DNA of 64,000 bases, from positions 8,139 through 72,138 of IMG/VR virus record IMGVR_UViG_3300027740_000040; one strand, written 5' to 3'. Made by a program: the position numbers and the translations under genes. The notes beneath the pieces are model-generated. The model was not told where the DNA came from, ran no database searches, and saw nothing but the letters and a program-made list of their open reading frames with translations. This document shows, piece after piece, positions 5,114 to 50,357 of the stretch; position 1 is the stretch's first letter, and each line of letters starts with the position of its first letter. The DNA comes from a virus.

Positions 5114-5374
5114 ATGACCAACGCGACGACGATCGAAAAACTCCTCGCCCTTGAAGACGAGCAGACCCGCACGGAGGCCGCTCGCCAGGTCGCCAAGGCC
5201 GCGCTGGCCGCCGACCCGGACAGCGACGCTCTCTACGACGCCGAGGACGCGGCGGGAGAGGCCGCCAAAGCCGCTCGCAAGGCGTTCGATGCGGCATTCT
5301 CCGCGTTCGCCCGCGAGTGCGGCTCGCAGTCCCGCGCCAACGACCTACTCCGCGCCGCCCGCTGCGCACGGTGA
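5114..5374 (+). CDS. small Ala-rich helical protein
   Basis: First gene after promoter A1. Confidence 0.75.
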   Translation: MTNATTIEKLLALEDEQTRTEAARQVAKAALAADPDSDALYDAEDAAGEAAKAARKAFDAAFSAFARECGSQSRANDLLRAARCAR

Positions 5375-5393
5375 AACCGTTCCTCCCGCTCCA

Positions 5394-5420
5394 GCCCCGC
5401 AGGTCGTCAGACCCCGGGGC
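5394..5420 (+). other. conserved intergenic RNA hairpin (CA/Y internal loop), copy 1
   Basis: GCCCCG-CA-GGTC-gtca-GACC-C-CGGGGC just upstream of an RBS. Confidence 0.65.
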
Positions 5421-5443
5421 CTGATGCGTCGGAGGAACCCGCC

Positions 5444-5668
5444 ATGACGATCCGCATCGAGGTCAGCACCGAGTCGCTGGGGTACGAAATCGCGACGGCC
5501 GCGAACGTCGAGGACTACTGCACCTGGGCCGACGATTGGTTCGGCGAGAACTATCCCGACCTGGACGTAGAGCACGTACCGGGCCCCGGCGGCAGTCGTG
5601 GCACCGACGTCTACGAGGCCGAGCAGGAGTGTTTCGAGGCGTGGTGCGCGGCTGGTGCGCAGGGGTAA
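5444..5668 (+). CDS. small acidic protein
   Basis: GGAGG RBS; 74 aa, D/E-rich. Confidence 0.75.
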   Translation: MTIRIEVSTESLGYEIATAANVEDYCTWADDWFGENYPDLDVEHVPGPGGSRGTDVYEAEQECFEAWCAAGAQG

Positions 5669-5671
5669 CAC

Positions 5672-5938
5672 ATGCCACCTCCCCGCCTACTCCTCGCCCT
5701 CCTCACCTCCCCATCGCCCACCGACCAGGCGAGGGCCATGGCCGAGATCCGAGCGGCCTACCTGGCCGCAGGAGGGTCTACCCGTGGAGCCGCCCAGCAC
5801 CTCGGTATCCGGGAGCTGACCCTCTATGGGTGGCTGCGGCGCCTGCCGGACCTCTCCCGGGCGGTGGACCAACTACAGGCCGAGCTAGGCTGGAGACGGT
5901 CCGGACAGGTGAGGACGCGGAGGGCAGGGCGGGACTGA
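5672..5938 (+). CDS. Fis-type HTH DNA-binding protein
   Basis: STRGAAQHLGIRELTLYGWLRRL HTH motif. Confidence 0.7.
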   Translation: MPPPRLLLALLTSPSPTDQARAMAEIRAAYLAAGGSTRGAAQHLGIRELTLYGWLRRLPDLSRAVDQLQAELGWRRSGQVRTRRAGRD

Positions 5939-5963
5939 CCGGGTGGCCTATCTGCTTGGCTCG

Positions 5964-6009
5964 GTCGATTTGCGATCGCAAACGGCTCCGGATAGTGTAT
6001 AGATACAGC
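5964..6009 (+). promoter_or_regulatory. sigma70-like early promoter, family A copy 2, with palindromic operator
   Basis: TTTGCG-16nt-GATAGT; perfect 14-bp palindrome TTTGCGATCGCAAA at 5969-5982. Confidence 0.65.
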
Positions 6010-6141
6010 ATGACGACGACAGAGACAGCGGCCAGCCTCCTGGCTCCCGAAGTCCTCGCCGCCGCCATCGGGATCCCCGCCAGCCGAACTGGCGCGCGGC
6101 GTGAAGGTACGTACTCCTCCCCGGGTAGGCTCCCGGGGTAA
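6010..6141 (+). CDS. short hypothetical peptide (43 aa, MTTTETAASLL...)
   Basis: ATG at the same offset from the promoter as 5114. Confidence 0.45.
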   Translation: MTTTETAASLLAPEVLAAAIGIPASRTGARREGTYSSPGRLPG

Positions 6142-6210
6142 CCAATCCCAGCCAGTCCCCGCCCGAACCCAGGTCACGCTGGGGCGGGCTTCGGGCGTTG
6201 AGGACCCACC

Positions 6211-6417
6211 GTGACGACCAACACCCGCACCGCGCAGACCTACGGAGAGCTAGTCGAGATCGTCGCCCGGACCGCAATCGAGCAGGGAGCCGGCGAGGAT
6301 TACATCCCCGGGCACGGGGATTACGAGGCACTCGAAGCTTTTGCCGGCACCGCGCCGGACGCTACCACGCGCGACCAGTTCGCGCGTGACGTGCAGGCCG
6401 AGATCGCCGCCGAGTAG
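6211..6417 (+). CDS. small acidic protein
   Basis: GAGGA RBS, GTG start. Confidence 0.7.
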   Translation: MTTNTRTAQTYGELVEIVARTAIEQGAGEDYIPGHGDYEALEAFAGTAPDATTRDQFARDVQAEIAAE

Positions 6418-6438
6418 TCCCTCTCTGCGCCCACTCCC

Positions 6439-6465
6439 GCCCCGCACCTCTCACGAGGCCGGGGC
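6439..6465 (+). other. conserved intergenic RNA hairpin, copy 2
   Basis: GCCCCG-CA-CCTC-tcac-GAGG-C-CGGGGC followed by CGTCGGAGGA RBS. Confidence 0.65.
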
Positions 6466-6485
6466 TCGCGGCGTCGGAGGACACC

Positions 6486-6692
6486 ATGACGCACGCCGAA
6501 GCCACGATCAGCACCAAACCCGTTCACCTGGTGGACCGAGACGCCACCGGGGAATTTATCGTCCGCCACCCAGCGTGGCTCCGTGACGGGGTGCTCGTGA
6601 TCGCGCACCCGACGGACCCGAAGGGGCTCCCGGTCGTGGCGCCCGTCGACGGCAGGTACGAACTGTCCCCCACGCTCGGCTACGATGAGTAG
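6486..6692 (+). CDS. small beta-rich hypothetical protein
   Basis: GGAGG RBS, 68 aa. Confidence 0.7.
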   Translation: MTHAEATISTKPVHLVDRDATGEFIVRHPAWLRDGVLVIAHPTDPKGLPVVAPVDGRYELSPTLGYDE

Positions 6693-6765
6693 TCCTCACA
6701 AAGCTGAACCCCGCCGGCTGAACCGACGGGGCTCGTTGCGGTCTGGGCTCGTGGCTCAGCCGCTG

Positions 6766-6848
6766 AGGAGGGTGAGGGATTCGAACCCCCGGACGTTACC
6801 GTCTGCCGGGTTCAAACCGGCTGCCTTCGACCTCTCGGCCAACCCTCC
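6766..6848 (-). tRNA. tRNA-Ser (anticodon UGA), class II
   Basis: Acceptor GGAGGGT/ACCCTCC; D arm GCC/GGC; anticodon arm GCCGG-TTTGAAC-CCGGC; long variable arm; GGGGG-TTCGAAT-CCCTC T arm; CCA not encoded. Confidence 0.9.
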
Positions 6849-7040
6849 ATGTCTCTACCCTGTACCATCTGCGGCGCCCCTTGGCATCCCGCAACCGGAG
6901 CCTGGTACTCGCCGCGGGGACGCGCCTGCTATCGGTGCGTCTGCGAGCTGTGGGACTGGCACCGGCGGCGGATGCGAGGACGGGCGAGGGGCGGGAAGGT
7001 CAGCTTCTACGACCACGTCTTCGGACCGCAGCAGAGATAG
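6849..7040 (+). CDS. small zinc-finger protein
   Basis: CTIC...CYRC motif; no clear RBS. Confidence 0.5.
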   Translation: MSLPCTICGAPWHPATGAWYSPRGRACYRCVCELWDWHRRRMRGRARGGKVSFYDHVFGPQQR

Positions 7041-7131
7041 TTCGGGCCCGACCGCCTATCGACGATCGGGCCCGGGATACGGGCAGCAAACTCGGCTTCG
7101 CTCCAATCCTAGCCACTACCCCTCCCGCGCG

Positions 7132-7593
7132 CTACTCGTCCAGCACGCGAATCGCCCCCGGGACATCCGGCCGTGGCGGCTGCGTCAGGTGGCTCCGGAC
7201 CTCCGTGAGTTGCTGCCGCCGCTGGTCCTCCCTCGCCTTGTCCGCCGCCCGCATCTCGACCACCAACTTGGCCAGCGACTCGACCTTCGGCTCGAGCCTG
7301 GCCACGGTGGCAGACAGGACCTGGACCTGGACTGTCAGCGCCGTCGTGGCCTGCGCCTGGCCCCCGTCGCCCCTCAGTGCCCGGATGAGTTCAGACGCCC
7401 CGCCAGAGCCCAGCACGACGGCCAGGACGACCGCTACCGACTGCGCTCGCCCTGGTGGAAGAGACGCGCGTGGGGAGGCAGGAGGGGGTGCCACGGGGGC
7501 ATCTGGCTTCGGCGGGTCAGAGTCCGGCACGAACACCGACATCCCGTCCGGGTCGTGCGCCAGGTGTCCGGTGCGGGATAGGCGGTCGGGCAT
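7132..7593 (-). CDS. membrane-anchored coiled-coil protein
   Basis: AGGA RBS; Pro-rich N-terminus, hydrophobic segment, then heptad repeats. Confidence 0.7.
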   Translation of the reverse strand: MPDRLSRTGHLAHDPDGMSVFVPDSDPPKPDAPVAPPPASPRASLPPGRAQSVAVVLAVVLGSGGASELIRALRGDGGQAQATTALTVQVQVLSATVARLEPKVESLAKLVVEMRAADKAREDQRRQQLTEVRSHLTQPPRPDVPGAIRVLDE

Positions 7594-7650
7594 GGTTTCC
7601 TGCGTGTTTTGTGCTTGGCCAGCGGGTCAGGTCGATTTGTTGAGAAGGGA

Positions 7651-7687
7651 GCTTGACTGTACTCTGAAAAGGAGTACCTTATGAAGC
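7651..7687 (+). promoter_or_regulatory. sigma70-like promoter, family B copy 1, with GTACTC-N7-GAGTAC operator
   Basis: TTGACT-16nt-TACCTT; inverted repeat fills the spacer. Confidence 0.7.
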
Positions 7688-8257
7688 ATGACGAACACGA
7701 CGACGGCCACAGCGAAGACCATCATCCACCCGTTCGAGGCTCGCGGGCTCGGCCAGGCGCCGTTCCGGTTCGTGGGCATGGTCGAGCAGGATCTCTGCTA
7801 CGGCGAAGCGATCCTGAACCGCGAGGAGTACCAGCGGACCGGGATCGCGCTGACCACCAAGCCGGGCGGGTCATGCGCCTACTGCGGCACCTACATCGTC
7901 AACATGTATCGGGTCCGCTCAGCCGACGGACGCGAATTCCACGTCGGATGCGAGTGCGTCGAGAAGGTGGCGAAGGCGGCTGCCGGCACCGCGCACGAAC
8001 GTGAGACGGCTGCCCTGCTGGCCCCCATCCGTCGCGCAAAGAATGCCCGCGCCAAGGCTCTCAGGACGGCGCGCGGGGCAGCCAAGGCGGCGGAGCTGGC
8101 GGCGACCGCCGAGCAGCGCCACGGCGAGTTGCTGGCCCGCCTCGACCGAGCTGACCACCCGGCGTTTCAGCGCATGGCGGAAGACCTCCGGAATGGCCGC
8201 GTGGCCAACCTGTCGCCTCGCCAGATTGCGTGGCTGGAGCAGACCGAGGCCCGGTAA
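7688..8257 (+). CDS. zinc-binding hypothetical protein
   Basis: CAYC...HVGCEC motif; first gene after promoter B1. Confidence 0.75.
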   Translation: MTNTTTATAKTIIHPFEARGLGQAPFRFVGMVEQDLCYGEAILNREEYQRTGIALTTKPGGSCAYCGTYIVNMYRVRSADGREFHVGCECVEKVAKAAAGTAHERETAALLAPIRRAKNARAKALRTARGAAKAAELAATAEQRHGELLARLDRADHPAFQRMAEDLRNGRVANLSPRQIAWLEQTEAR

Positions 8258-8278
8258 CCATCACCCCCTCGTCCTCCC

Positions 8279-47992: not shown

Positions 47993-48553
47993 CTACGCCG
48001 CCTTCTTCTCCAACTCCTTCTTGAGCTTCGCGTTCTCGCGCGTCAGCCGCGCCACCTGGGTCCTGAGCTGGGCGTTCTCGCGGGTTAGCCTGTCGATCTC
48101 GGTGAGGCGCCCGACGTCTCGCGGAACCTCTTGTCGTGGATCCACCTGTCGGAGCAACCGCTGCGATGCTTGCAGCGAGGGTCGCACTCCTCCGCGCGCA
48201 TCCGAGAAGGCGTCGACCGCCCGCACGAACGCCGGAACCCGATCGCGATCCCTAGTGTTCGCCAGCGCTATGACGGGGTTCGCCCCCAGCCGCTCCGCTT
48301 CCTCCTCGCCGACCAGTCCGACGCCCTTCTTGAAGTTCTCGAAGCGGGCCACGTCACACAGGTCGTGCGACTTGAGGAACTGGGCGAACGTTCCGATCCC
48401 GCACGCCTCCAGCAGCGACATCTGCTCTGCCTCGACCCGCCGCAGGTAGAGGAGGAATCGCGCGTCCGCCTCCTCCTTGCTCTGCCGCAGTGAGCGGGCC
48501 TCGGTGACGATCTCGTTCAGTTTCTCTTCGTTGCTCTTCTGCTTCTTGGACAT
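47993..48553 (-). CDS. hypothetical protein with C-terminal coiled coil
   Basis: ATG at 48553; its RBS lies in the partial CRISPR repeat. Confidence 0.8.
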   Translation of the reverse strand: MSKKQKSNEEKLNEIVTEARSLRQSKEEADARFLLYLRRVEAEQMSLLEACGIGTFAQFLKSHDLCDVARFENFKKGVGLVGEEEAERLGANPVIALANTRDRDRVPAFVRAVDAFSDARGGVRPSLQASQRLLRQVDPRQEVPRDVGRLTEIDRLTRENAQLRTQVARLTRENAKLKKELEKKAA

Positions 48554-48557
48554 TTGG

Positions 48558-48577
48558 TTCCTTTCCTCACGCATCGC
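48558..48577 (-). repeat. partial (20-nt) CRISPR repeat copy containing an RBS
   Basis: TTCCTTTCCTCACGCATCGC identical to the repeat core; abuts the last full repeat. Confidence 0.85.
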
Positions 48578-48754
48578 GCTCTGCATTCCTTTCCTCACGC
48601 ATCGCACCACGGCTCGACCACGAACTACGTGGACGGGTCGGAGCTCCTCCGCTCTGCATTCCTTTCCTCACGCATCGCACCGTCACAACCCAACGGAGAA
48701 TCAGGAAGATGACAACGACCTCCGCTCTGCATTCCTTTCCTCACGCATCGCACC
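48577..48754 (-). CRISPR. mini-CRISPR array: three repeats (36, 36, 32 nt) and two 37-nt spacers
   Basis: Repeat CCTCCGCTCTGCATTCCTTTCCTCACGCATCGCACC (+) at 48719-48754 and 48646-48681, 4-nt-truncated at 48577-48608; unique spacers 48609-48645 and 48682-48718; period 73. Confidence 0.9.
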
Positions 48755-50357
48755 TGCCCTCCGAGGCTCGGCGCGATTTCGATGGGTTACGCGACGCTTT
48801 GCGAGCGCCTCCTTTCTTGGTTCTGCCCGGCTCCCCGGCGGGGCCTTGTTTCTGCTGATCTGCCTCACGCACCACTTCGCCTCTCGCCTCCGGGCTTGCG
48901 AACCCCGTCTCGATTCCGAACAGCTTGTCCCACGCGCTCATGTTGGCGCCTGACCTGCGCAGCATGTGCAGCACCGCCACGAAGTCGGCCGGGCGCTCGT
49001 ACCCGCAAGCTTGGCAGTGGAACACCCCGGTACGGGTGTTGTGCTGACCGTCGTGCACGTTGCAGCACCGCGGGCATTCGGTGCTGATGTACTCGGACGA
49101 CACCTCGTCCAGCGGGATCCCATCCTTCCGCAGCGCCCACGCCACCGCCGTCTTCAACTCGGCGAGCGGGAATCGGTCCACGAACCTCCGAACGTTGCGA
49201 TCGTCGCTCGGCTGAATGCCGCCATGGTCCTCGATGAATACCCGGCCGCACCCCCACTCGCGGCAGAGTTTCGCCACCGCGGCGGCGAGTTGTTGACACT
49301 TCGTGTGATTGAAGCGCGCCAGGTAGTCGCCGAGTCGCTCGTAGGTCGCGAAACGTCGATCTCTCCCGTGCCCCTTCGCGCCGCTTCCGCGCTCCGACTC
49401 GACGATTCCCTTCAACTGCCGACGCCGCGCCTCGAGCGACCGCCGCATCGCTAGGTACTTGTTCCCGCGGTCCAGGTATCGGAACTTACCGGTGCTGCTC
49501 ATGGCCGTCAGCCAGTTGTGCTGACCACGGTGCACAACGAGGACGTTCGCCGCGTTGAGCTTGGTGGGTGCCGGCTCCGGCTCCGAGTAGGCGATGATCG
49601 CGTACCACTTCCGCCTACGCTCGTCGTACACGATCTTGAGCGCACCGCGCTTGACCGAACCATCTGCAATCTCCCGAAGCTTCGCCCAGTGGCTACCCTT
49701 CGACGGCGCCAGGCGCGCGAACCAGTATTCGATCACGTCCGCTCCGCCATCCTTGTTGGATCCGAGCGCGATCTTCAGGGTCACCCCGTGCGCGTCCGCG
49801 ATGACTCCTGACTCGTTAGCTCGGTTAGGGATGGGCGCTCCTAGCTTGTAAGATGGGATTCGCGTCCGCTTGCCGTCCTTCGTCCACTTCTTCAGCTTTC
49901 GCTCCACCTCGCGAGCCACATCCGACATCATACCGGCGTGGCATTCAATCCCGTTCGCTTTCGCTACCTGCCTAGCCATCTGGTAGGCGCGAGCCTTCCC
50001 GTCTAGGTCGAACAGTTCCTTCCCCGAGTGCTGCTCGAGCAGCACGTTCAGCAGCGTACCGTTGTAGATGTGGTGCATCGCCGACCGGTAGCGACGAAGC
50101 TCGGTGCCAAGCTCGTCCCACGTGCGCCCTATCGGCGCCACGATCTCCACCCGAAGCGCCTTGGTGATCAGAGGAACCTCGCAGTGGACCGACGAACGGC
50201 GGAATGCAGAGCTCTCGGAATCCTTCGGACCCGAGAAGACCGAGGCGGACGAACCGCCCCGTTTGCGAGCGGACTTGCCCTCGCATCCGGGCCCCGGAGT
50301 AGGCCCATTATTGCTCTCCGCTCGTCGGCCCGCTGCGGGGCCCTTCTGTTCCTTCAC
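48741..50357 (-). CDS. cas12f: Cas12f (type V-F)-like effector with RuvC-I Asp-to-His substitution
   Basis: Colinear motifs with AsCas12f1 as recalled: TKALRVEIV-P...W-ELGT-LR, IPSYK, YDERRRKWY, GHGRDRR, GCGRVFIED, CPRC/CQAC, ADF. Start is GTG 50357 (GAGGAGG RBS) or CTG 50171. Confidence 0.85.
   Translation of the reverse strand: MKEQKGPAAGRRAESNNGPTPGPGCEGKSARKRGGSSASVFSGPKDSESSAFRRSSVHCEVPLITKALRVEIVAPIGRTWDELGTELRRYRSAMHHIYNGTLLNVLLEQHSGKELFDLDGKARAYQMARQVAKANGIECHAGMMSDVAREVERKLKKWTKDGKRTRIPSYKLGAPIPNRANESGVIADAHGVTLKIALGSNKDGGADVIEYWFARLAPSKGSHWAKLREIADGSVKRGALKIVYDERRRKWYAIIAYSEPEPAPTKLNAANVLVVHRGQHNWLTAMSSTGKFRYLDRGNKYLAMRRSLEARRRQLKGIVESERGSGAKGHGRDRRFATYERLGDYLARFNHTKCQQLAAAVAKLCREWGCGRVFIEDHGGIQPSDDRNVRRFVDRFPLAELKTAVAWALRKDGIPLDEVSSEYISTECPRCCNVHDGQHNTRTGVFHCQACGYERPADFVAVLHMLRRSGANMSAWDKLFGIETGFASPEARGEVVREADQQKQGPAGEPGRTKKGGARKASRNPSKSRRASEGRCDA
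50190..50345 (-). ncRNA. tracrRNA candidate
   Basis: 12-nt anti-repeat at 50201-50212; 5-nt anti-repeat CTCCG in a hairpin loop at 50295-50299; several stem-loops; ends approximate. Confidence 0.55.

Follow-up and report, generated by a model that had tools for sequence, protein, structure and literature searches.

A phage-borne type V-F-derived CRISPR locus whose Cas12f-like effector probably binds DNA without cutting it

Cas12f1 effectors are compact proteins of 400-700 aa with a WED-REC-RuvC-zinc ribbon layout and an intact D-E-D catalytic triad, which carry out PAM-dependent cleavage of double-stranded DNA as a homodimer on one guide. Cas12f descends from TnpB, and many V-F1 loci hold an adaptation module of cas1, cas2 and cas4. 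Among other type V effectors, Cas12m, found in cells or on plasmids, works without a tracrRNA, while Cas12j is an active nuclease. Cas12r of Thermus phages (10.64898/2026.04.20.719267) and Cas12 hacker, with an intact D-E-D (10.1101/2025.01.20.633832), are active nucleases of other Cas12 lineages. TldR is a miniature, RuvC-inactivated RNA-guided DNA binder, sometimes encoded by prophages, that represses chosen genes (10.1101/2023.11.30.569447). Hoffmann, Wiegand et al. described a nuclease-dead dCas12f associated with sigma-E, chromosomal in Bacteroidota and compared with CnCas12f and UnCas12f, which has a C-terminal truncation removing part of RuvC, single guide RNAs and a sigma factor as partner; a minor CRISPR-associated dCas12f cluster in the same study adjoins CRISPR arrays (PMC13472631).

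The locus described here lies in a window of 64,000 nt (the whole stretch of DNA that was analysed) from an 85.7-kb IMG/VR virus record of a high-GC soil phage. The record encodes a large terminase subunit, portal, protease, tail sheath, tape measure protein, DnaB helicase and primase, and these structural, packaging and replication genes bear out the earlier placement of the system in a phage; the locus is situated between the replication and packaging genes. It comprises a Cas12f1-type effector, a tracrRNA of ~160 nt, an array of three repeats and two spacers and a partner protein of ~185 aa, without adaptation genes (Table 1). The absence of cas1, cas2, cas4 and tnpA, previously remarked upon for the vicinity, extends for Cas1, Cas2 and Y1 transposase to the whole 85.7-kb record, and Cas1 was likewise not found in five related viral records, of which three reach a completeness of 93% or more. 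Megablast of 10 kb gave no match to GenBank phages. With a probability of about 0.6, we read the locus as a genuine phage type V-F-derived CRISPR system whose H-E-D effector binds chosen DNA instead of cutting it.

Table 1. Features of the phage locus, in window positions.
Feature	Position	Strand	Remarks
Partner gene	47993..48553	minus	186 aa, directly downstream of effector locus
Partial fourth repeat (20-nt core)	48558-48577	minus	overlaps repeat 3 end, abuts partner start codon
CRISPR mini-array	48573..48754	minus	3 repeats, 2 spacers; same direction as effector
Repeat 3	48573-48608	minus	36 nt, 89% identical, diverged at spacer-proximal end / last bases
Spacer 2	48609-48645	minus	37 nt, unique
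Repeat 2	48646-48681	minus	36 nt, identical to repeat 1
Spacer 1	48682-48718	minus	37 nt, unique
Repeat 1	48719-48754	minus	36 nt, identical to repeat 2
Cas12f-like effector ORF	48741..50357	minus	538 aa counted from GTG 50357
23-nt block	48798..48820	minus	within ORF 3' tail; identical in L006, a 45%-identical relative
RuvC-III Asp codon	48984-48986	minus	motif columns of alignment
RuvC-II Glu codon	49230-49232	minus	motif columns of alignment
RuvC-I His codon	49530-49532	minus	motif columns of alignment
tracrRNA candidate	50186..50345	minus	~160 nt, within ORF 5' extension; closing long-range stem
Anti-repeat	50212-50201	minus	followed by 3' tail, 50200-50189
tracrRNA stem	50284-50278 and 50272-50265	minus	GCGAGGG (50284-50278) pairs with CCGCTCGC (50272-50265)
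tracrRNA pseudoknot hairpin	50306-50289	minus	loop CTCCG (50299-50295) complements repeat 3' end

Over query residues 8-408 the effector aligns with the AsCas12f chains 8j12, 7wju and 8dzj, structures of AsCas12f1 (Acidibacillus sulfuroxidans, type V-F1), at E ~5e-30 (phmmer, PDB). Further Cas12f chains follow at E 2e-19 to 6e-5, CnCas12f 8hr5 reaching only 7e-9, one solved TnpB chain is matched at E 0.0067, and no Cas12m chain occurs among the PDB sequence matches with E up to 1. The protein also carries PF07282 (the Cas12f1-like TNB domain) and retains the CxxC..CxxC zinc ribbon, and the AsCas12f motif pairs that the earlier note had listed all recur in the HMMER alignment (IVKP/IVAP, IPSYK, the RKWY block, GHGRD and IQMED/FIED). 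This full-length alignment supports the proposed identity of the protein as a Cas12f homologue, with AsCas12f the closest, and places it with solved Cas12f rather than with TnpB, the grouping against which that identity had been set. Translation may begin at GTG 50357-50355, which has a good Shine-Dalgarno (GGAGGA just upstream) and shares its position with the ATG of the relative L006, or at CTG 50171-50169, where the AsCas12f-homologous core starts and which, in the window and L006 alike, matches the Met of short homologues. The stop codon (48741-48743) sits within repeat 1.

The earlier statement that the layout matches Cas12f holds for homology, array and tracrRNA and fails at the catalytic triad. 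The RuvC-I Asp of AsCas12f (GIDLG in 8j12) aligns with a His (VHRG) in the effector, opposite the engineered Ala of the dead AsCas12f mutant 8dzj, while the Glu and the second Asp are kept, giving an H-E-D triad. H-R-G is invariant in the 21 closest relatives. With a threshold of E 1e-30, a profile search gave 372 representative clusters. Among the best 144 full-length ones, which were inspected, the triad was HED in 82, RED in 10, NED in 10, KED in 2 and DED in only 5, so that a residue other than Asp at RuvC-I is nearly clade-wide. His occupies this position in 98 of the 144, and the Glu and second Asp are kept in most, although further-decayed triads also occur (HGD, HDD, RAD, RQD, REE and REH). 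Sister branches have Arg, Asn, Lys, Ile, Leu or Val at RuvC-I, and one array-bearing relative (L021) has Asn. In a quick FastTree phylogeny of the 144 representatives, rooted by our own choice on the DED group, the five DED proteins form one clade and the other 139 lie across a branch with local support 100. This pattern fits a single loss of the Asp with subsequent drift of the other catalytic positions, and it fits a loss of canonical cleavage; since the triad fails in the effector and nearly throughout its clade, a cutting nuclease is not to be assumed. Those clade members that can be placed in context are all phage-borne or metagenomic. A search of cellular genome contigs with a narrow alignment and a single peptide pattern, a test too narrow to claim absence, gave no relative.

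The array repeats with a period of 73, and the window holds four copies of a 20-nt repeat core, for which chance alone would give 0.01. In relatives at 35-45% identity the arrays consist of 6-12 repeats, each 36 nt long and spaced at a period of 71-76, the 3' halves of the repeats being homologous, and a relative at 28% identity has an array of 14 repeats. In one phage recovered from two samples the arrays differ by three spacers, and repeat-spacer arrays with unique spacers were present in 10 of the 12 distinct loci examined. The three 36-nt repeats and two unique 37-nt spacers can thus be regarded as the CRISPR mini-array they were first taken for, because relatives carry longer arrays of 6-14 homologous repeats. 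The 23-nt block shared with L006 holds the second copy of a CGCTCGC(A/G)AA motif, ~45-55 nt upstream of repeat 1, and may serve as array leader, promoter or RNA element; the first copy was rejected as a pure promoter element, as it pairs within the tracrRNA. A scan for sigma-70 promoters found none, and terminator-like matches lay on the opposite strand, where they coincide with the tracrRNA hairpins.

None of the comparisons made gave a protospacer for either spacer. Neither has a second match in the window or a match in the five related viral records, and in the whole phage record the best alignments have 14-15 mismatches. The spacer halves (5' 24-nt and 3' 23-24-nt) were not found in viral, genome or metagenome contigs in scans for exact matches, by which diverged targets would be missed. 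Similarly, two spacers of a relative matched solely their own array, and none of sixty spacers taken from eight arrays had a match other than itself across the collected loci.

Upstream, within the effector frame, the candidate tracrRNA is conserved at the nucleotide level with L006 and folds with a dG of -84.4 (z -3.2). In nine loci its anti-repeat is complementary to repeat positions ~20-31 and covaries with the repeat, and the hairpin loop tracks the repeat 3' end from locus to locus (CUCC/GGAG, CUUC/GAAG and UUUC/GAAA). Of the 33 pairs in the consensus fold of the nine loci, 24 show compensatory change; 90.9% of cells are paired, compared with 33-52% in slid controls, and the covariation score of 0.56 (0.10-0.15 in controls) was reached by none of 500 shuffles. 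The suggestion of a tracrRNA is therefore upheld computationally, by a covarying structure of ~160 nt in nine loci that pairs with the repeat. Rfam holds no family matching it. A look-up of sequencing runs listed one soil-metagenome DNA holder and no RNA holder, which says nothing on expression.

The conserved partner gene was left out of the earlier description of a complete system of about 1.8 kb, of which the effector, array and tracrRNA stand; with the partner the locus measures ~2.4 kb and is a compact and complete example of a large clade. Of the 11 systems for which enough sequence is available, 10 have a partner of ~185 aa next to the effector, directly downstream in the window and in L006, L008, L011, L013, L015, L018, L019 and L020, and in G001 across the record junction. 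The neighbourhoods of these loci are otherwise unrelated, with nothing else in common within 18 kb around the window's gene, and the partner family is comparable in rarity to the closest relatives of the effector. In the predicted structure of the partner (pLDDT 90-91) a helical core leads into a leucine-zipper-like coiled coil at the C-terminus, and apart from the coiled coil the protein matches no Pfam family. The coiled coil dominates the matches of the full-length model in fold searches. The core model (pLDDT 91) gave weak ESM Atlas matches to DUF222 (TM 0.58 over 115 residues) and DUF1016_N (TM 0.54), and resembles the DNA-binding domains of ParB, Spo0J, SopB and KorB weakly (Z 3.8-4.9; Foldseek E ~1). 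Prediction of an effector-partner complex scored 0.00, which gives no verdict and was weighed neither way. Pfam sigma-70 domains are absent from the neighbouring proteins.

In the system that we favour, the array transcript and the tracrRNA would pair at two places, the anti-repeat with repeat bases 20-31 and the hairpin loop with the repeat 3' end, to form a pseudoknot. The effector would load this dual RNA, open an R-loop at DNA that matches one of the two spacers and, because its canonical D-E-D centre is broken, remain bound there, so blocking transcription or replication without a double-strand cut, in a manner comparable to Cas12m, TldR and dCas12f. The residue pattern makes binding without cutting the most likely activity of the effector. 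The likeliest targets would be a competing mobile element or host genes, and the partner protein probably works with the complex or regulates the locus. A further and rather doubtful possibility is that the H-E-D effector and a dimerising partner form a phage-specific two-protein RNA-guided machine, in which the effector would find the site and the partner would act there, for instance through a transcription switch, DNA bridging or blocking, or recruitment of a host factor. This would parallel dCas12f with sigma-E, with a different output, and a tracrRNA inside the effector coding sequence would couple the dosage of RNA and protein.

The His is well conserved, however, and the Glu and second Asp are mostly retained, which could indicate a working non-canonical centre; moreover, long and diverse arrays that turn over are expected of interference and suit cutting as well as silencing. 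It is accordingly possible, if on balance unlikely, that the effector is still a nuclease, with the conserved His, Glu and Asp forming, for example, a one-metal or His-assisted site that nicks or cuts target DNA, so that the phage destroys competitors, or that processes its own pre-crRNA. The frequency of the His (98/144) and of the full H-E-D (82/144), the invariance of H-R-G in the 21 nearest relatives and the long, diverse and variable arrays all speak for such activity. For some TnpB branches, Altae-Tran et al. also argue that proteins with conserved catalytic substitutions, for instance His in place of the RuvC-III Asp, may still be active (PMC10691335), and Cas12m keeps a non-canonical RuvC that processes RNA (PMC10442227). 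On the other hand, the variety of residues at the same position in sister branches (Arg, Asn, Lys, Ile, Leu or Val) and the repeated loss of the Glu and second Asp (from HGD to REH) resemble relaxed selection on catalysis, the array-bearing L021 has Asn at RuvC-I, and the first Asp is the very residue mutated to kill AsCas12f in 8dzj.

The junction between array and partner gene raises a different, improbable alternative, namely a self-regulatory device in which the terminal and partial repeats over the partner ribosome-binding site control partner translation, through the effector, the tracrRNA or crRNA processing, and the spacers matter little. The 20-nt partial repeat does provide the GAGGAAAGGAA ribosome-binding site, 4 nt ahead of the partner ATG; in L013 a solitary repeat immediately precedes the partner ribosome-binding site and start, with no further array, and in L006 the partner 5' leader comes after the second repeat. 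Yet this layout is not general, because most relatives have the array after the partner gene or hold 6-12 ordinary spacers, and the spacers of the window are unique and have the canonical length; since flanking DNA follows any terminal repeat, the arrangement could be incidental. Least probable is the reading of the effector as an IS200/605-type TnpB that uses a guide RNA from its own 3' end, next to unrelated repeats that are regulatory or due to chance. The effector scores 98.9 bits with NCBIfam guided_TnpB, just below the cut-off of 100, its ORF overlaps the first repeat at the 3' end, and database sources label some relatives 'IS605 OrfB transposase'; the near miss is, however, expected of Cas12f as a descendant of TnpB. 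The TnpB reading is largely refuted by the absence of a Y1 transposase from the 85.7-kb record, the match to solved Cas12f (E 5e-30, against 0.0067 for the sole matching TnpB chain), the arrays with unique spacers in 10 of 12 distinct loci, the separate covarying tracrRNA that pairs with the repeats and the fourfold occurrence of the 20-nt core where 0.01 is expected.

Compared with AsCas12f1, the phage system is alike in full-length homology, size class, zinc ribbon, RuvC-II Glu and RuvC-III Asp, in the adjacent array of 36-nt repeats and in a tracrRNA with an anti-repeat and a pseudoknot contact to the repeat 3' end. Unlike AsCas12f1, it is encoded by a phage and has a RuvC-I His, two spacers only and no cas1 or cas2, its tracrRNA is embedded in the ORF 5' extension, its partner is conserved in 10 of 11 systems, and its effector falls in a large sister clade without the Asp, which comprises 139 of the 144 representatives. 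A naturally altered RuvC, predicted RNA-guided DNA binding and a linked protein partner are shared with dCas12f (PMC13472631), but the phage effector keeps RuvC-III and the zinc ribbon and has AsCas12f as its nearest solved relative, its carrier is a high-GC soil phage, its guide is a dual RNA and its partner lacks a sigma-70 domain; the adjacent rpoE (a sigma-E with an additional C-terminal domain) and C-terminally truncated RuvC characteristic of dCas12f-sigma-E are both absent. Cas12m (type V-M) is similarly compact with a non-canonical RuvC and gives protection through DNA binding and transcription block in place of cutting, which is the mechanism proposed by analogy for the phage effector; the comparison concerns the proposed mode of action and not family membership, with no sequence kinship detectable in the PDB search. 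TldR, in contrast, is TnpB-derived and relies on one omega-like RNA whose guide is fixed (10.1101/2023.11.30.569447), whereas the phage system takes its guides from a CRISPR array, in which spacers can be exchanged, and its tracrRNA is a separate RNA. Cas12j/CasPhi, Cas12r and Cas12 hacker resemble it as compact Cas12 proteins with an array on a phage, without an adaptation module and with a presumed role in mobile-element conflicts, but they have neither the partner gene nor the H-E-D site.

The clade adjoins the genome-editing workhorse AsCas12f, yet no paper describing it was found in the literature. For practical purposes, an AsCas12f-like scaffold of ~430-480 residues that by nature does not cut, and whose guide architecture is defined, would be of use in repression or base-editing designs. 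To our knowledge, no type V effectors are rarer than the natural RNA-guided DNA binders, represented by Cas12k, Cas12m, TldR and dCas12f with sigma-E, and every one known to us has brought new biology. If the phage effector is a further such binder, the locus raises the questions of how a phage would benefit from guided binding without cutting, what role its partner plays and how the tracrRNA can be encoded inside the effector frame.

The effector aligns over residues 8-408 with the solved chains 8j12, 7wju and 8dzj of AsCas12f (Acidibacillus sulfuroxidans Cas12f1, type V-F1) at E ~5e-30, with weaker alignment to other Cas12f structures and an E of 0.0067 to the sole matching solved TnpB chain. 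It carries a Cas12f1-like TNB zinc ribbon (Pfam), and the motif pairs that an earlier note had listed for the two proteins are all present in this alignment. By descent, as judged from sequence, the effector is a sister of AsCas12f-type Cas12f1. Its nearest 20 relatives are metagenomic and 36-45% identical, and phage-like contexts were found for the 20 closest relatives and for five IMG/VR loci, including three viral records at least 93% complete.

The canonical active site of the effector is broken. At RuvC-I, the His of VVHRG takes the place of the Asp in the AsCas12f motif GIDLG, a residue changed to Ala in the engineered dead mutant 8dzj, and H-R-G shows no variation among the 21 nearest relatives. 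A profile run against 1.84 billion representatives returned 372 proteins at E <=1e-30, and catalytic residues (RuvC-I, -II and -III in order) were counted in the 144 full-length proteins among the best 150 of these. H-E-D was found in 82/144, R-E-D and N-E-D in 10 each and K-E-D in two, with further losses among the others (HGD, HDD, RAD, RQD, REE, REH etc.). Only five proteins have D-E-D, together with the AsCas12f-like GIDLG and NADYNAA; in a FastTree tree they form one clade, with the other 139 across a branch of local support 100, where rooting on the five was by choice, such that the tree shows a clean split and not an order of events. The pattern is read here as one loss of the first Asp, after which the two remaining catalytic positions drifted, and would be the signature of a lineage without selection for two-metal catalysis. 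Since the His is strongly conserved, a non-canonical activity may persist, which is considered unlikely beside a reading in which two-metal catalysis is no longer selected.

The layout described in the earlier note, an ORF followed directly by three 36-nt repeats and two unique 37-nt spacers, was confirmed. The repeats have a period of 73, and the window contains four copies of their 20-nt core where 0.01 would be expected; the fourth copy is partial and forms the ribosome-binding site of the partner gene. Arrays of relatives hold 6-12 repeats of 36 nt at a period of 71-76, with 3' halves resembling the window repeat and spacers of 35-40 nt that all differ, and one phage recovered from two samples shows a three-spacer difference. 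The window repeats are a CRISPR array, its two spacers lying at the small end of the range among relatives. The effector stop codon lies inside repeat 1, as it does in L006, the closest related locus. The distant relative L021 has an effector of 596 aa (28% identity, RuvC-I Asn in GINRG), with an unrelated ORF of ~140-189 aa after its array. Locus L013 has a solitary 36-nt repeat with no further array, preceded by a full tracrRNA and immediately upstream of the ribosome-binding site and start of the partner gene; here the place of the 'spacer' is taken by the translation start region of the partner gene itself, a single-guide-like state. No protospacers of spacers 1 and 2 were found in the window, the phage record or exact-match scans of contig databases. 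On the plus strand, spacer 1 resembles a 5' leader in which a GGAG/AGGAAG ribosome-binding site precedes ATG ACA ACG, and its crRNA would therefore run antisense to the region where translation starts; no gene matching this leader-like sequence was found in any search.

A tracrRNA is predicted from an anti-repeat to repeat bases 20-31 that is shared with L006, where a G-to-A change compensates a C-to-T change in the repeat; in seven more loci, whose repeats differ, an anti-repeat matches these positions too. About 90 nt upstream of the anti-repeat, a hairpin loop is complementary to the terminal bases of the repeat and tracks its 3' end (CUCC/GGAG in most loci, CUUC/GAAG in L008, UUUC/GAAA in L011). 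Such a pseudoknot with the repeat 3' end has been described as general among Cas12 tracrRNAs (10.1101/2025.01.20.633832). The consensus fold of the nine aligned regions comprises four helices with a total of 33 pairs, of which 24 show two-sided changes; the paired share of cells is 90.9%, against 33-52% with partners slid, and the covariation score of 0.56 (against 0.10-0.15) was reached by 0/500 shuffles. The window tracrRNA sequence alone gives the same fold (dG -84.4, z -3.2).

In most loci the tracrRNA occupies the stretch that separates the effector or partner gene from the array; the window and L006 have it 5' of the sequence for the conserved protein core, within an in-frame 5' ORF extension whose nucleotide conservation between the two is far above that of the protein. 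Both keep a Shine-Dalgarno sequence and start codon just 5' of the tracrRNA, and have CTG at the Met position of short homologues. Both ends of the ORF are extended over nucleotide-conserved elements, the 5' end over the tracrRNA and the 3' end over a 23-nt block and the beginning of repeat 1. Two peptide motifs common to the related protein P0003, SAFRRS and KKGGARK, probably reflect these nucleic-acid constraints. One strand of a tracrRNA stem is a first copy of the motif CGCTCGC(A/G)AA, and the 23-nt block contains a second, which in most loci examined lies ~45-55 nt before the first repeat. This second copy may serve as a promoter or leader of the array, as an operator for the partner protein or as an alternative strand for pairing.

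Features of the window and of related loci
Feature	Location	Strand	Remark
Effector ORF	48741-50357	minus	aligned to solved AsCas12f chains
RuvC-I His codon	49530-49532	minus	
RuvC-II Glu codon	49230-49232	minus	present
RuvC-III Asp codon	48984-48986	minus	present
ORF extensions	50186-50357; 48741-48900		5' end; 3' end
Anti-repeat	50212-50201	minus	perfect 12-nt pairing with repeat bases 20-31
23-nt block	48798-48820	minus	ORF 3' tail; identical in L006
Spacer 1	48682-48718		
Partner gene	47993-48553	minus	186 aa; next gene after effector
Tandem duplication	48010-48093		partner coiled-coil region
Second motif copies	L008 ~8062; L009 ~5053; L018, L020, L011		upstream of arrays
Solitary repeat	L013:7645-7710		
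L021 effector	5308-7098		
L021 array	7127-8268		14 repeats, directly downstream of effector

The partner has no Pfam family, coiled-coil noise aside. Homologues 27-66% identical follow the effector immediately in L006, L008, L011, L013, L015, L018, L019 and L020, and across the record junction in the complete phage G001. Of the 11 systems for which enough sequence is available, 10 have an effector-linked partner; the exception is the distant N-E-D relative L021, with no homologue in its 182-kb record. Identity to the window copy drops roughly in parallel with that of the effector, and the partner is as rare as the effector's closest relatives in a database of 5.8 billion proteins. Within 18 kb around the window effector, nothing else is common to partner-bearing loci, and the pair therefore travels as a module. 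In the partner models (pLDDT 90-91), a helical core is joined to a long zipper at the C-terminus. The core is similar to DUF222 (TM 0.58) and DUF1016_N (TM 0.54), helical domains that stand N-terminal to nuclease domains in other proteins, and more weakly to the DNA-binding domains of ParB, SopB and KorB; these model-based likenesses are leads, not assignments. A 42-nt imperfect tandem duplication in the coiled-coil region (peptide repeat LTRENAxL) is probably heptad-repeat coding only.

The window comes from a soil-metagenome IMG/VR virus record of 85.7 kb, in which genes for the large terminase subunit, portal, head protease, tail sheath and tape measure protein, as well as a DnaB-type helicase and primase, are all on the minus strand, with the effector ORF between the replication and packaging genes. 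Neither Cas1, Cas2 nor a Y1 transposase was found in the whole record, in line with the earlier claim of a locus without cas1, cas2 or tnpA, and no Cas1 was found in five related viral records. In the long viral records L017, L018, L019, L020, L008 and L011 the effector is mostly ~0.1-6 kb from a contig end; either the module lies near genome termini or arrays break assemblies. G001 (111.6 kb) has direct terminal repeats according to IMG/VR, and its module straddles the record ends. The phage of related protein P0010 has the tracrRNA region twice, once before the array and once after the effector (L009:4867-5234, 7474-7601), and L010, a 2476-nt contig of a different sample, closes on itself via a duplication of this region.

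The system differs from active Cas12f in its effector lacking D-E-D, and from the dCas12f-sigma-E systems (PMC13472631) in having neither a sigma factor nor a C-terminal truncation. The same work mentions a 'CRISPR-associated dCas12f cluster' of Bacteroidota, which appears to be a lineage other than the window clade. Altered catalytic sites in Cas12f branches have been noted in general terms by Altae-Tran et al. (PMC10691335), and no description of the clade, partner or tracrRNA was found in the literature searched. The interpretation as a complete hypercompact Cas12f system stands in part: the locus holds a genuine and compact type V-F-derived system, carried by a phage, whose canonical active site is broken and which has an additional, so far unrecognised, partner. 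Its predicted working mode would be most like that of Cas12m, TldR and dCas12f systems.
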